Shown here: positions 32,506-49,161 of the stretch, in pieces | Layout: every line of letters begins with the position of its first letter | Position numbering within the stretch: position 1 is the first letter of the stretch | IMG/VR virus record: IMGVR_UViG_3300017960_000013 | DNA: 64,000 nt | Source: a virus | Direction: 5' to 3' (one strand) | Position numbers and translations under genes: made by a program | Notes under the pieces: generated by a model | Told to the model about the DNA's origin: nothing | Seen by the model: only the letters and a program-made list of their open reading frames with translations | Databases searched by the model: none

Positions 32506-34008
32506 TCAACGACTATATCTTTCAAGCACCTGTTTCTTTGCTTCGTCCTTCTTCAACGCTTTTCCTTTTGCGGCATAGTCCTCTTCCAACTCAATCAGAA
32601 ACCGCGACACGTCCCCAACAAGCGGTCCCGGCTTCACGTTCAGTATTTGCATAATTTCTTTGCCGTCCAACACTGGCTTTTTTGAAACGGGTAACGGAGA
32701 CTTTCTGATATCATCAATCATGCGCCTCAGATTGGGAGCATAATTCTGCGGCGGCAACTTTCCGATCGCATCCGCCTCTGCCAAGTCAATCAACGCATCA
32801 ATAGATTCATCACCAATCTTGCGGACAAAGCGACGCAATACTTTCTGCACACGCGCTGAATCGCCCTTGTTTGATTTTATCATATCATCAATTCGATGTG
32901 GCCGCATATGATTTTCAACCAATTTGCGAACAGTATTGATCGTACGACTGTCAAACTTCAGCCTACGCAAAATTGCTTCCGCGATTTCACCAGACACTTT
33001 TTCATGGCCATGGAATGAAATCCCGTTTCCAAATATCTGCTGCGTCTTTGCCTTTCCAACGTCATGCAACAACGCCGCCATCTGAGCCTCTACCGTTGGC
33101 TTTGCGTTTTTCAATACCATCATAGTATGTTTGAATACGTTTCCTTCTGCATGTTGCTTCGGCGACTGCTTGACTTTTGTAAGCTCATCCACTTCTGGAA
33201 GTACATATTTGAGTAAACCTGTTATCTTCATTAATCGAATTGCTTTGTTCAGTTTGCCCAATTTCATTACCTTTTCAAGTTCTCCCATAATGCGTTCAGG
33301 CGACACAATTTGAATTCGTTTTGCATTGCGTTTGACAATGCGTAACACATCCATTGGAATGTCCCATCCGTATTTCGTTTGGAACCGGATCAAACGTATC
33401 ATTCGCAACGGGTCGTTCATGAAAATCTTATCAAGCGAAACGCCGGGATGACCGCGCAAGATTCCTTTCTTCAAATCATTCTTACTCACTCCGGTCAAGT
33501 CTTTGATTTCACCGTTTGTCAAATCTTTCATCAACATGTTGACGGTAAAATCTCGGCGTTTAACGTCCTGCTCAAGCGTTCCATATTCAGTTTGTCGTTG
33601 TCTGCTTTCTGGGTCAGGAAAACTCTCAGTCATCGTATCGGCAAATTCAAGAACCGCGCCTTTGGTTTTATACGTCTTACCCTCATAAGAAATATCTTCT
33701 TTGAAAGCAATCTGCCAAATAGGATAACCAGCGCCCAATTGCCTCGGAGTAGAAACTGCTTTGCCCAATTCCTTCTTAATCAACTTAGTAAGTTTTTCAG
33801 CGCCACCCTTCATCTCTACAACAACGTCAAGGTCTTTTGATTCCAAACCTAACAATTCATCACGGACGTAACCGCCTACGGCATACGCCTTGTGCGCAAA
33901 AGGCGTACCTTTCAAAAACACTTTGAGAAAGCGTTCAAATTCTTTTTCTGCGAGAGTCGCAGTTACGAGAAGCGTTGCTATTTTTTGAAGTTCAGATGAA
34001 ACATTCAT
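32506..34008 (-). CDS. cca: CCA-adding tRNA nucleotidyltransferase (class II) with HD domain, plus N-terminal leader
   Basis: AVGGYVRD..KDLDV, RRDFTVN, DPLRMIR, ERIMGEL, HT..LLHDVGK; begins MNVSSELQKIATLLVTA. Confidence 0.92.
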   Translation of the reverse strand: MNVSSELQKIATLLVTATLAEKEFERFLKVFLKGTPFAHKAYAVGGYVRDELLGLESKDLDVVVEMKGGAEKLTKLIKKELGKAVSTPRQLGAGYPIWQIAFKEDISYEGKTYKTKGAVLEFADTMTESFPDPESRQRQTEYGTLEQDVKRRDFTVNMLMKDLTNGEIKDLTGVSKNDLKKGILRGHPGVSLDKIFMNDPLRMIRLIRFQTKYGWDIPMDVLRIVKRNAKRIQIVSPERIMGELEKVMKLGKLNKAIRLMKITGLLKYVLPEVDELTKVKQSPKQHAEGNVFKHTMMVLKNAKPTVEAQMAALLHDVGKAKTQQIFGNGISFHGHEKVSGEIAEAILRRLKFDSRTINTVRKLVENHMRPHRIDDMIKSNKGDSARVQKVLRRFVRKIGDESIDALIDLAEADAIGKLPPQNYAPNLRRMIDDIRKSPLPVSKKPVLDGKEIMQILNVKPGPLVGDVSRFLIELEEDYAAKGKALKKDEAKKQVLERYSR

Positions 34009-34391
34009 GAAGCATACACCGTGATATCATAGCGTTCAAGAGGATCATCAATTGGACCAGCGCCACTTGCAACCAACCGCCCATAAAGCTTATGAAGGCG
34101 TCCGCGCTCGTTTGCAAACTCTATTTCAAACTTCCATTCTTTCGCATTGGGGTTGCCTGTTACTTTATCCTGTGTATACTTGTTGCTCATAATCGTATAA
34201 GGGATTCCTGCTCTGTCTAACGCTTCCCAAACTTGTTTTACGCCTCTCCAATATGAATCGCTGAAAAGCCCTTTTGATGCGTCTGCCATCAATTTGTTTA
34301 CAACTTTTGTTGCTTTTTGTTTTCTCATTCCATTTAAGGGATTGACGAGTATAGCGGCAATTTTCAAAAGCTGTTTTGCAATCTGTTTCAT
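34005..34391 (-). CDS. leader-bearing hypothetical protein
   Basis: MKQIAKQLLKIAAIL. Confidence 0.7.
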   Translation of the reverse strand: MKQIAKQLLKIAAILVNPLNGMRKQKATKVVNKLMADASKGLFSDSYWRGVKQVWEALDRAGIPYTIMSNKYTQDKVTGNPNAKEWKFEIEFANERGRLHKLYGRLVASGAGPIDDPLERYDITVYAS

Positions 34392-34582
34392 TTGTATTCC
34401 CTCAATTTTCTCTTTTGGCATTCAACGACTCTGCACAGACCGAGAATTCCTTTTTCCAAATCCTTTTTCAACCGTTTACACCTTCCACGTTTCACATGTA
34501 AGTGTCTGCAACGTTTTTCAACTCCAAATAAATTACAGTATTTCGAGTCATCGTAATTAATCTCCACTGCCGTTCTCTCCAA
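34388..34582 (-). CDS. small Cys-containing protein
   Basis: 64 aa with spaced Cys residues, coupled. Confidence 0.5.
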   Translation of the reverse strand: MERTAVEINYDDSKYCNLFGVEKRCRHLHVKRGRCKRLKKDLEKGILGLCRVVECQKRKLREYK

Positions 34583-35114
34583 TAAGAATCTTTGCTATCT
34601 TGATTAACTCTGTTGAAATTTTTCTCTTCGTATAGTACATTTCCCAAAGCTTGTAAAGCTTGACTAAATACTTAGCCGCATCTATCGGCTTTGGATCTCG
34701 TATCTCCCTATCAACTTTGACCAAAGGGTTTTCCCTCGTAAACGTCCAAGCATCTGCCATGATTTTGATTCTTCCGTTATTGAAAATTATACTTGCTATT
34801 TTCTTCTTGCTTCCTTTTGGATAAACTTCGTACACCTCGTCTGCTCTTGCAAACGTGTCTGCTTTGAAAACTACAAACCGCCCTGCTCTGAACTCCACGT
34901 CAACGACCCATTCATCAAAATCTTTTTCGTCCATGGCTTTCTTGCTATCCGCTTTGTTTGCTACGCTCCAAGCAATTGGAAAACATTTACCATCGTCTCC
35001 CCCGCCAGCAAAACAACTGTTGATCGACTTGAGCCAACCCCGTTGCGCCTTCTGACTATACTTCTTCAAACCGGGATGTTTCTTTATTGCTTCCTCAACG
35101 CTTTTGAATGGCAT
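34557..35114 (-). CDS. ChaB-like N-terminal domain protein with a C-terminal copy of the leader motif
   Basis: MPFKS..HP..AQRGW..INS..CFPIAWSVANK resembles ChaB; ends KISTELIKIAKILIG. Confidence 0.6.
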   Translation of the reverse strand: MPFKSVEEAIKKHPGLKKYSQKAQRGWLKSINSCFAGGGDDGKCFPIAWSVANKADSKKAMDEKDFDEWVVDVEFRAGRFVVFKADTFARADEVYEVYPKGSKKKIASIIFNNGRIKIMADAWTFTRENPLVKVDREIRDPKPIDAAKYLVKLYKLWEMYYTKRKISTELIKIAKILIGENGSGD

Positions 35115-35118
35115 CGTT

Positions 35119-35343
35119 TTACACCTTGAAATTTGAAGTTAATAATCCAAGGACAAGCTTCAATTGTTTGAGTGACCGTTTTGCTTTCTGTTTATTGAAA
35201 TCAGCTATTGATTTTGACCGCACCTTCTTCGAAATATTCTCCAACTTGTCTGAAGCCTTTTGAAGTTCAATTGCGTAATTATCAACTACGGGATCAGCTA
35301 AAAGCCTTTTTGCAATTCTTGTAGCAATTTGTTTTTCATTCAT
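35119..35343 (-). CDS. small helical protein with variant leader
   Basis: MNEKQIATRIAKRLLAD. Confidence 0.6.
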   Translation of the reverse strand: MNEKQIATRIAKRLLADPVVDNYAIELQKASDKLENISKKVRSKSIADFNKQKAKRSLKQLKLVLGLLTSNFKV

Positions 35344-35611
35344 GCGTTTTGACTTTTCCATTTTTTTGTTCCAGATTCGTTCTCACGTTTTGAACAATCC
35401 CCGCCAAGTAACTAATTTGCTTTGACAATTCTCCAAGTTGAACTTCTTCATGGCTTACGTGTTTTTCTATATATGGTTTTGCCATCTTTTCCAAATGCTT
35501 TATGACCGCAAACTTTTCCTTACCCCCCAAGTTCAAAGAATTTCGCCTGATGAGACAGAGCAAGTGATACGCCTGTTTCGACGATACTCCTTTGTTTTTC
35601 ATTTTGATCAT
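35336..35611 (-). CDS. small hypothetical protein
   Basis: 91 aa, co-oriented. Confidence 0.5.
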   Translation of the reverse strand: MIKMKNKGVSSKQAYHLLCLIRRNSLNLGGKEKFAVIKHLEKMAKPYIEKHVSHEEVQLGELSKQISYLAGIVQNVRTNLEQKNGKVKTHE

Positions 35612-48191: not shown

Positions 48192-48192
48192 T

Positions 48193-48465
48193 TTACTTCC
48201 CCTGCCGAACAAGCTTCAAGAAATTTTCCAAAGTGTTCTTCTCAGTTCCCTTACGACCTTCTGGCATTTTGTAGCTGTAACTTATCCACGTCATTCCGTC
48301 ACTGGTAAAACTATGCTGAGGAATCCCTACCCAAATCTCCTTCACCACAAACTCAATACCTCCCTCGCCTGTGAACTTCGTTCCCTTCTTAAGCACTGAA
48401 GGCGCCTGCACATCAGCGTTCATAAGCTTTGCTATCTTCAAAAGCTCAAAAGCCACTTTCTTCAT
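48193..48465 (-). CDS. leader-bearing small protein
   Basis: MKKVAFELLKIAKLMNA. Confidence 0.72.
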   Translation of the reverse strand: MKKVAFELLKIAKLMNADVQAPSVLKKGTKFTGEGGIEFVVKEIWVGIPQHSFTSDGMTWISYSYKMPEGRKGTEKNTLENFLKLVRQGK

Positions 48466-48502
48466 TTTCCCCATCCCTGTAAGAAAAGGACGCTTTTCAC
48501 TT

Positions 48503-48811
48503 TTACCAATCTACAGATGGCCCTTTCATCCCCCTGCTGTCCCACCACTTCTTCGCATGCCTTTCAAGTGATCCCCAAAACCCAGCAGAATTCATGTCTA
48601 CGTCTGGATGCTTAGAAGACAACTTATCGTATAATTTCTGAAATCTGTCGTGAAACCTTTGCTGATGTCTCATCGGCGCTTTACTCTTTGCTGACTCAAT
48701 CTTCAAAGCATATGCCTTGGCAAGATTTTTTTTAGCAACGGCAGAAGGGATACCGCTAATAAGTAATTGAGCAGTTCTCAAAAGCTCCTGAGCTATCTCT
48801 TTATCATCCAT
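48503..48811 (-). CDS. leader-bearing small protein
   Basis: MDDKEIAQELLRTAQLLISG. Confidence 0.7.
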   Translation of the reverse strand: MDDKEIAQELLRTAQLLISGIPSAVAKKNLAKAYALKIESAKSKAPMRHQQRFHDRFQKLYDKLSSKHPDVDMNSAGFWGSLERHAKKWWDSRGMKGPSVDW

Positions 48812-48870
48812 TTTCCCAAACCCTTGTAACAAAGACCGCTTTTCACTTTTCAAATTTTTTTGCTCAAATA

Positions 48871-49161
48871 TTATTTCAACCCCTTCAAGTAATCTTCCAT
48901 CTTGGTGGATTCAAAATCCAATTTATTCCACGTCTCATTAAACGTATTTTCTATTGCTTTCATTCTCTTTTTCATCTGCTCGTGTTTCTTGTTACCCTCA
49001 ACTTCAGGAAATAAATCAACAGCATCAACAAATTCCATTTGAGCCTTGTCCAAATGCGTCATCGCACTTCTCAATTTCTTCAAACAAGGCTTTGCTCCCG
49101 GTTTCCCAGATGCCGCTATTCTATTTGCTATCTCCAAAATCTCTCTTGCGATTTTTTCCAT
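48871..49161 (-). CDS. leader-bearing small protein
   Basis: MEKIAREILEIANRIAASG. Confidence 0.7.
   Translation of the reverse strand: MEKIAREILEIANRIAASGKPGAKPCLKKLRSAMTHLDKAQMEFVDAVDLFPEVEGNKKHEQMKKRMKAIENTFNETWNKLDFESTKMEDYLKGLK

Follow-up and report, generated by a model that had tools for sequence, protein, structure and literature searches.

A peptide shared by the proteins of one gene array

The stretch of viral DNA analysed here, 64,000 nucleotides (nt) of IMG/VR record IMGVR_UViG_3300017960_000013 and referred to throughout as the window, carries an array of genes whose largely unrelated products bear one and the same short peptide, usually as an N-terminal leader, which we call the tag. 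The array lies on the minus strand, which holds nearly all genes up to about 50 kb of the window. The tag spans 16 residues with the consensus K-K-[VIL]-A-x-E-L-[LVI]-K-[IVL]-A-K-x-L-x-[AGS]. A loose regular expression for its core motif matched 21 times, always on the minus strand at 34.3-49.2 kb and nowhere else in the six reading frames of the window. A profile hidden Markov model (HMM) built from these matches, the seed HMM, scored its seeds at 17-30 bits and added three copies, two C-terminal and one internal, which brings the window total to 24 copies on 22 minus-strand proteins between 34.3 and 49.2 kb. Twenty of these copies begin within five residues of the start methionine; of the other four, one is found at residue 30, two at C-termini and one at an internal position. 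The remaining six-frame segments of the 64 kb scored at most 5.8 bits with the seed HMM. A clade-wide HMM, obtained by iterating the seed HMM with the leaders of related phages, recovered 27 copies at 14 bits or more from the window and a 14-kb extension of it, against at most 6.3 bits for reversed-sequence decoys, and the score distribution was cleanly bimodal. At the level of DNA, a degenerate pattern of 30 nt matched eight times, compared with no match in 100 shuffles. The copies and their carriers are given below, with lengths in amino acids (aa); for the 24 counted copies, scores are from the seed HMM unless the clade-wide HMM is named.

32506..34008, minus strand: CCA-adding enzyme (Pfam PolyA_pol + HD) with a degenerate N-terminal leader at 33964-33996, 5-7.5 bits
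34335..34388, minus strand: N-terminal leader, 128-aa protein (34005-34391), 21.8 bits
34575..34622, minus strand: C-terminal copy, 185-aa protein (34557-35114), 13.8 bits; clade-wide HMM 19.6
36948..37001, minus strand: N-terminal leader, 137-aa protein (36591-37004), 25.9 bits
38240..38293, minus strand: N-terminal leader, 255-aa protein (37529-38296), 24.2 bits
40173..40229, minus strand: N-terminal leader, 125-aa protein (39852-40229), 28.5 bits
40276..40668, minus strand: EncFtn-like/rubrerythrin-type ferritin-like protein (Pfam Rubrerythrin 1.7e-10; EncFtn-like 2e-4, below the cutoff of that family), no detectable tag of its own
40652..40687, minus strand: C-terminal copy, 99-aa protein (40628-40927), 12.7 bits; clade-wide HMM 22.4
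40862..40918, minus strand: N-terminal leader, same 99-aa protein (40628-40927), 21.8 bits
41361-41402, minus strand: weak second copy, 187-aa protein (40950-41513), about 8.5 bits
41454..41510, minus strand: N-terminal leader, same 187-aa protein (40950-41513), 22.8 bits
41867..41920, minus strand: N-terminal leader, 139-aa DUF5661 protein (41510-41929; Pfam E 5e-15), 17.5 bits
42441..42494, minus strand: N-terminal leader, 140-aa protein (42075-42497), 22.9 bits
42961..43014, minus strand: N-terminal leader, 174-aa protein (42499-43023), 17.1 bits
43771..43821, minus strand: N-terminal leader, 114-aa protein (43486-43830), 23.2 bits
45520..45573, minus strand: N-terminal leader, 78-aa protein (45346-45582), 29.4 bits
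45990..46043, minus strand: leader at residues 30-46, 178-aa protein (45594-46130), 26.4 bits
46080-46121, minus strand: degenerate first copy, same 178-aa protein (45594-46130), about 10 bits
46429..46482, minus strand: N-terminal leader, 113-aa protein (46144-46485), 25.7 bits
46862..46918, minus strand: N-terminal leader, 143-aa protein (46496-46927), 29.6 bits
47092..47142, minus strand: N-terminal leader, 73-aa protein (46927-47148), 20.4 bits
47324..47374, minus strand: N-terminal leader, 75-aa protein (47159-47386), 26.0 bits
47671..47724, minus strand: N-terminal leader, 111-aa protein (47398-47733), 26.3 bits
47967..48011, minus strand: internal second copy, 152-aa protein (47733-48191), 10.2 bits; clade-wide HMM 16.6
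48126..48179, minus strand: N-terminal leader, same 152-aa protein (47733-48191), 22.7 bits
48412..48462, minus strand: N-terminal leader, 90-aa protein (48193-48465), 29.1 bits
48749..48802, minus strand: N-terminal leader, 102-aa protein (48503-48811), 22.2 bits
49102..49158, minus strand: N-terminal leader, 96-aa protein (48871-49161), the first gene of the array, 21.1 bits

An initial annotation of this DNA had reported the leader on more than 20 open reading frames (ORFs), attached to mostly unrelated proteins and absent from the genes at 9.9-32.5 kb and 50.4-64 kb. All of this held: in a BLAST comparison of 37 array-region proteins with the leader masked, only three pairs were alike at E<1e-3, and no copy rose above background in the six frames of either interval. 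The annotation had proposed an HMM scan of the whole genome and of related large phages; run on the window and its relatives, such a scan found no other scoring segment in the window and further copies in the relatives. Among the internal or C-terminal copies it had listed, those of the genes at 34557, 40628 and 47733 were scored and that of the gene at 45594 proved to lie at residues 30-46; the copy in the gene at 40950 is weak. The RIA/KVA relatives that it saw in the ORFs at 537-5273 obtained no score, and a second, looser leader class of the form RIA/IA-x-R-IA was enriched at N-termini just 2.7-fold. The tags that it had assigned to the phosphatidylserine decarboxylase (44270-45349) and to a 340-aa protein (38833-39855) were rejected at 0 bits or less. 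We likewise discarded the C-terminal tail of the EncFtn-like protein and the C-terminus of the prohead protease described below (at most 1.6 bits), together with the C-terminus of the protein at 49496-49936 on the minus strand, which is leader-like by eye and scores 1.2 bits; this last protein, 146 aa long and extremely rich in Arg and Lys, is encoded just upstream of the array.

Pfam and PHROGs contain no family for the tag peptide. Literature searches for the motif strings returned no papers, a word-index protein search with the leader region returned only the query protein itself, and the ESM Atlas neighbours of one carrier were uninformative. Inspection for a shared promoter revealed no common motif upstream of the array and head genes. 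The array stops exactly at a compositional boundary near position 50000 of the window, where G+C climbs from about 0.42 to 0.47-0.54 and beyond which the GC skew flips sign or flattens.

Selection on the peptide and its portability between proteins

Comparison of the leaders by codon position gave identities of 0.51, 0.67 and 0.35 at the first, second and third positions, 58% of residue pairs that are identical between leaders are encoded by different codons, and the 45 nt upstream of the leaders are identical at 0.32, which is the level of chance. Selection therefore acts on the peptide, as the initial annotation had argued from the variable codons.

Most of the carriers are small and basic, with an isoelectric point (pI) above 9 in 19 of the 22 window carriers and a median of 9.7 versus 6.1 for other ORFs, as expected of proteins that travel with DNA. 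Their bodies are mostly ORFans and belong to many unrelated, mostly unnamed families. The bodies that could be named comprise a CCA-adding enzyme (in three phages), a type IB topoisomerase, an EncFtn-like/rubrerythrin-type protein, DUF5661, zinc ribbons, a GNAT protein with a C-terminal tag and an ADP-ribosyltransferase (ART) of the ART-PolyVal family (E 4e-18). For four bodies, namely the CCA-adding enzyme, the EncFtn-like protein, the DUF5661 protein and the family of the gene at 34557, orthologues vary in having a clear tag, a degenerate one or none. The CCA-adding enzyme of the window has the degenerate N-terminus listed above, and its orthologues in two other phages (L033:14127-15602 and L040:9626-11161) bear clear leaders, so that the degenerate N-terminus is a true relative. 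A G001 homologue of the N-terminal 60 aa of the 34557-35114 protein has no tag, and the G002 orthologue of the EncFtn-like protein (L031:6475-6837) has a leader at its N-terminus. In the window, the C-terminal copy of the 40628-40927 protein shares DNA, in a different frame, with the start of the EncFtn-like gene at 40276-40668, which has no tag. The overlap of stop and start at 40628-40690 reads ATGCCTGA, and a shift of one base would fuse the leader to the ferritin-like domain in the arrangement of the G002 orthologue; an old frameshift, an assembly error or programmed shifting could be at work here. The same peptide on unrelated bodies, orthologues with and without it, and C-terminal and multiple copies make the portability of the tag well supported.

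Exchange of parts is also apparent within the array. Two pairs of tagged proteins have C-terminal domains in common behind differing middles, 42499-43023 with 48193-48465 (44% identity) and 47733-48191 with 48871-49161 (31%), which is module shuffling inside the array. The paralogous ORFs 41926-42063 and 43020-43463 have 90% identity in the first 30 aa and 87% in the last 16, and between these ends they differ in frame. Downstream of each is a gene whose MRNKKLAVEL leader is near-identical and whose body differs, so that this region looks like a recent duplication with a body swap. Such events raise the question of whether the peptide has any function, for a shared start could be a mere by-product of genes being born by duplication and recombination at a common 5' cassette. 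The tandem duplication with swapped bodies at 41.9-43.5 kb and the modules common to array genes are what this explanation would predict. The low third-position identity, the differing codons and the chance-level upstream DNA are not, nor is the persistence of the peptide at C-termini and across phages whose proteases are 54-72% identical, and we consider a functionless peptide hardly credible.

Conservation and predicted structure of the tag

Among 75 distinct leaders, 71 retain A4, 70 E6, 67 L7 and 71 A11; a K or R stands at position 9 in 64 and at position 12 in 60, an A, S or G at position 16 in 69, and there is no conservation from position 17 on. The core is nearly free of Gly and contains an aromatic residue in one leader of the 75. 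AlphaFold2 (AF2) models the tag as a helix, with a mean hydrophobic moment of 0.46 and a mean net charge of +1.6, in which the hydrophobic residues form one broad face with two Ala beside a Leu/Ile stripe. As read from the sequences, this conservation pattern fits tight packing on one specific protein surface and would be unlike that of a membrane anchor. A membrane-targeting amphipathic helix of the MinD/FtsA type, which would bring phage proteins to the host inner membrane, has in its favour the basic, amphipathic character of the tag, its occurrence at either terminus and the presence of the phosphatidylserine decarboxylase gene inside the array. However, conservation of at least 93% at A4, E6 and A11, retention of the acidic residue and the near absence of aromatics are unlike membrane anchors, the decarboxylase itself is untagged, and the carriers include nucleic-acid enzymes; membrane targeting is accordingly a very improbable role for the tag.

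In other phages a second motif, about 30 aa long, can stand at a constant distance behind the leader. It reads [IM]-[ED]-F-[PD]-T and then K-Y-[LM]-K-x-H-P-x-A-D-x-S-x-H-x-V, and 19 such units were seen (for example L029:5637-5726, L029:9239-9328, L030:12387-12476, L035:11282-11371 and L038:19397-19483, and in P0002, P0012, P0031 and others). The second motif also occurs without the leader in two head-module proteins of G001, and it is not present in the window or its extension. AF2 predicts 49 residues of leader plus second motif to form a small helix-strand-helix-strand domain (predicted local distance difference test score, pLDDT, of 80). A fold search with this 49-aa model gave no match in the PDB at E<=0.001, and in Pfam the second motif has weak sub-threshold matches alone (Phage_blade, MHB, CP12).

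Head genes of the phage and spread of the tag through its clade

The left part of the window enters a head module, and a protein-identity look-up led to an ENA contig, L007 (a 182-kb record), which is 100% identical to window positions 1-6684 and reaches 14.3 kb past the left window end; exact-pattern searches for the contig of the window itself had no match in viral or metagenome contigs. The head genes found in the window and in this extension are as follows.

5830-7644, minus strand: terminase large subunit (phrog_9, 3.6e-18; weak match to Pfam TerL_ATPase)
3309-5273, minus strand: portal protein (phrog_16240, 3e-26), the start of the head module that continues past the left end of the window
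L007: head-maturation (prohead) protease, 321 aa (phrog_18299)
L007: two acidic scaffold-like proteins, 235 and 404 aa (scaffold A and scaffold B)
L007: conserved protein, 168 aa
L007: major head protein (MCP), 289 aa (phrog_2522, E 4e-54)

Identity of the MCP is 70% with its counterpart in LR745208.1, an uncultured phage of 485 kb, 49% with that of the Tunturiibacter phage Tunturi_5 and 38% with Bacillus phage G gp27; the prohead protease is homologous to phage G gp19; and one array protein is recorded on a 338-kb contig, so that the phage contig measures at least 338 kb. Because of these relations, the window is to be assigned, on its gene content, to a phage-G-like jumbo phage. The protease profile found no match among PDB sequences, an AF2 model of the protease from a four-sequence alignment was unusable (pLDDT 37), and head-region DNA had no match among 50,697 GenBank phages. 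Scaffold-B-like proteins (L007:14388-15602 and orthologues) retain an N-domain of about 140 aa and a C-terminal tail, K-K-L-G-G-Q-P-K-V-A...L-W-x-S-A-P-D, on either side of an acidic low-complexity middle that is hypervariable.

Scanning IMG/VR with the degenerate DNA pattern and then the HMM yielded five further viral contigs (G002-G006) with 8-15 copies each, all on one strand per contig, and a related contig reached through the portal protein (G001) has three. The MCP is present in G001-G004 of the five contigs searched, at 91-98% by the measure of the search tool, and the protease at 54-72%. In the window, its extension and the related contigs together, 78 of 542 coding-strand ORFs (14%) are tagged, with 82 copies, of which 69 are N-terminal, about six C-terminal and the rest internal. 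A profile of the 75 leaders, run against 1.84 billion representative proteins, retrieved 75 proteins at E<=0.001, 74 of them phage-like; the copies are N-terminal, C-terminal or internal, and many of these carriers have two to four, often one at each end. The tag is a solid and clade-wide phenomenon, undescribed before, for which a head-loading function is plausible on sequence grounds.

A tblastn search with a 26-aa leader found no match among the 50,697 GenBank phages, and the tag was not found in LR745208.1 or Tunturi_5. In LR745208.1, 11 proteins (L041:38478-38576 among 11 places) start instead with another leader, about 30 aa long, whose core is L-I-R-L-A-H and which ends in L-L-P-L-L-K-E-A; one of the 11 is encoded between the scaffold-B-like and capsid genes. 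In Bacillus phage G, the only relative in culture, an M-K-R-L-[IV]-K-K-like start was noticed by eye on about ten ORFs of the head region (L042:4754-39631; gp5, 9, 10, 13, 17, 20, 38, 53, 56 and 57) and may represent a third lineage-specific leader.

Linkage of tagged genes to head-assembly genes

At least seven relatives have tagged genes placed between those for the prohead protease, the scaffold and the capsid. The three copies of L007 stand beside the protease, and the genes for the scaffold-like proteins and the MCP lie downstream of them. G002/G006 and G001 have the MCP gene immediately followed by the tagged array, and in G003 and G004 the protease is flanked by tagged genes, with a tagged CCA-adding enzyme within the head module of G003. 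On the metagenome contig L044 the protease gene is followed by two tagged genes, then by the gene of a 549-aa protein with four copies, of which the HMM scored two and the others were read by eye, and then by scaffold A and scaffold B. A weak internal look-alike of the leader (5.5-7.6 bits) is present in the scaffold A proteins of the window phage and G001 and absent in G002-G004.

A putative docking tag for the procapsid

The reading that we favour, with a probability of about 0.5, is that the tag serves as a procapsid docking element which would work like the capsid-targeting sequence (CTS) of phage T4, while being unrelated to it in sequence, independent of position and sometimes multivalent. 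In this mechanism, the Ala/Leu face of the helix would bind one common and conserved partner inside the assembling procapsid, candidates being a scaffold protein and the inner face or N-arm of the 289-aa HK97-type capsid protein. Unrelated, mostly small basic proteins and a few enzymes would be enclosed in the head as internal proteins during assembly, and would then exit with the DNA or act inside the capsid. Carriers with two to four copies would be multivalent linkers or auxiliary scaffolds. The initial annotation had proposed a portable tag that loads cargo into the capsid; its portability is well supported, and the case for head loading is circumstantial, consisting of the placement of the tagged genes, the small basic cargo, an ART-PolyVal carrier that recalls T4 Alt and a carrier resembling encapsulated ferritins. 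A co-fold of a 40-aa leader with the MCP, scaffold A and residues 1-150 of scaffold B (score 0.07, pLDDT 36-51) counts on neither side of the question of binding.

In phage T4, the CTS brings diverse internal proteins to the scaffold core (PMC3012670), and the likeness to the tag extends to several features. In both cases a short shared peptide stands on unrelated, hypervariable and mostly small basic proteins and on an ADP-ribosyltransferase (IPI-III and Alt in T4), a prohead protease and a scaffold are encoded, and the tagged genes are linked to head-assembly genes (PMC3012670, PMC5694885, PMC5512222). ARTs of the polyvalent-protein type are predicted to be packaged (PMC5512222), and T4 Alt is packaged through its CTS and injected (PMC5512222, PMC3012670). 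The two peptides nevertheless lack sequence similarity, the tag has 16 residues compared with about 10 in T4, and its only Glu lies inside the helix (A-x-E-L-L-K), unlike the CTS, which ends in L/I-x-E at the cut site. The tag also occurs C-terminally, internally and in two to four copies with no conserved cut site after it, and about 14% of the sampled ORFs are tagged, compared with a handful in T4.

Propeptides of the giant phages phiKZ, 201phi2-1 and SPN3US are cut at A-x-E or S/A/G-x-E (PMC5694885). As in those phages, many internal proteins would be loaded, and the tag holds a near-invariant A-x-E (PMC5694885), the sole invariant candidate cut site that it contains. By analogy this site within the helix matches the A-x-E and S/A/G-x-E sites of giant-phage prohead proteases, and it is put forward as a candidate cut only. 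Unlike the tag, phiKZ-type propeptides are long (up to more than 100 aa) and have no common sequence, and the 289-aa capsid protein of the window phage, which is related to phage G gp27, comes from another lineage.

Precedents for a helix that binds the shell from within come from scaffolding proteins. P22 gp8, 80alpha gp46 and SaPI1 CpmB bind capsid protein in the procapsid through basic amphipathic C-terminal helices, and in the 80alpha/SaPI1 pair two different proteins share the coat-binding helix. Those helices are confined to one or two dedicated scaffolds, unlike the tag, which is found on dozens of unrelated proteins. The cargo-loading peptides of encapsulins offer a further parallel, in that a short peptide at either terminus would dock diverse cargo inside an HK97-fold shell, the carriers include an EncFtn-like protein, and the shell gene adjoins the cargo genes (the MCP gene being directly upstream of the arrays in G001 and G002/G006). 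The parallel is limited by the EncFtn-like Pfam match being below its cutoff; encapsulin peptides are extended and Gly-rich, whereas the tag is an amphipathic helix, and the shell here is that of a real tailed phage with terminase, portal, protease and scaffolds.

Several observations weigh against head docking and have to be set beside these likenesses. C-terminal and internal copies do not fit a simple T4-style propeptide that is clipped off, and C-terminal copies would not have to be removed. No conserved cleavage motif was found after the leader in the 75 leaders. The main array of the window lies 27-42 kb from the terminase gene, among non-structural genes, and the 180-kb contig G005 has 15 copies and no capsid gene on the contig. 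Tagging of 14% of the sampled ORFs would make for a very large cargo set, and the clade is known from the genes of uncultivated members alone. In 19 proteins from other phages, furthermore, the helix is modelled as the first element of a folded 45-aa mini-domain, in which its hydrophobic face may be buried and not free to dock.

The multi-copy carriers and the scaffold A look-alike also bear on a different proposal, in which the helices would bind one another as a short zipper and co-assemble their carriers, without any separate receptor, into a heteromeric mass, be it a core resembling an inner body or a cytoplasmic one. Heptad-like spacing of the hydrophobic stripe, with small Ala next to its core positions, would suit such a zipper, and many proteins have two to four copies or a copy at both ends. 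At 16 residues, however, the tag is short for a stable coiled coil, and in the composite 45-aa unit the helix is predicted to pack on its own second helix; we judge self-association to be quite unlikely.

The placement of the window array and of the G005 copies among non-structural genes would suit a common partner outside the head, such as a compartment or condensate built by the phage, a chaperone or protease adaptor, or an enzyme that would recognise the leader and modify its carriers, as happens with ribosomally synthesized and post-translationally modified peptides (RiPPs). The conservation pattern demands a common partner and leaves its identity unspecified, and a radical-SAM protein is encoded in the window at 17289-18539. 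That gene has no homologue on four of five related contig fragments, which have 3-12 tagged genes each, and a weak one on G005, whereas the MCP and protease are found on four of those five contigs. The carriers are full-size folded enzymes and proteins of 70-250 aa instead of short cores, and tagged genes are embedded between protease and scaffold genes. Double-glycine/RiPP leaders end in GG/GA and have L-S-x-x-E-L-x-x-I spacing; the spacing of the tag is V-A-x-E-L, its small residues at positions 16-17 are four residues out of register, and the tagged bodies are folded proteins of 70-500 aa, unlike the short cores of RiPPs. We regard docking on a partner outside the head as unlikely.

If docking in the procapsid is correct, a wider proposal could be made, which we offer as a tentative and doubtful one. 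The 16-residue helix of this megaphage clade might be a general address code that sends more than one tenth of the proteome into the capsid, a form of encapsulin-style loading in a true virus, with cargo including the CCA-adding enzyme, topoisomerase IB, ADP-ribosyltransferase, acetyltransferase and the encapsulated-ferritin-like protein; sister lineages would have evolved other leaders together with their receptor, such as the LIRLAH-type leader of LR745208.1. If the tag does load proteins into the head, a single HMM would identify all the proteins that an uncultivated megaphage lineage injects or keeps inside its capsid. Among them would be dozens of small basic proteins that evolve fast and are likely to serve counter-defence or takeover, together with enzymes able to act on entry, and the tag would provide a compact handle, usable at either protein end, for packaging foreign proteins in large capsids.

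Other features of the window

To the right of the terminase gene, at 12950-14167 on the minus strand, the window encodes a protein that joins a DUF2201 VWA-like domain to a putative metallopeptidase domain (phrog_1314). In phage G, a gene for a zinc-dependent peptidase (gp2) adjoins the terminase gene.

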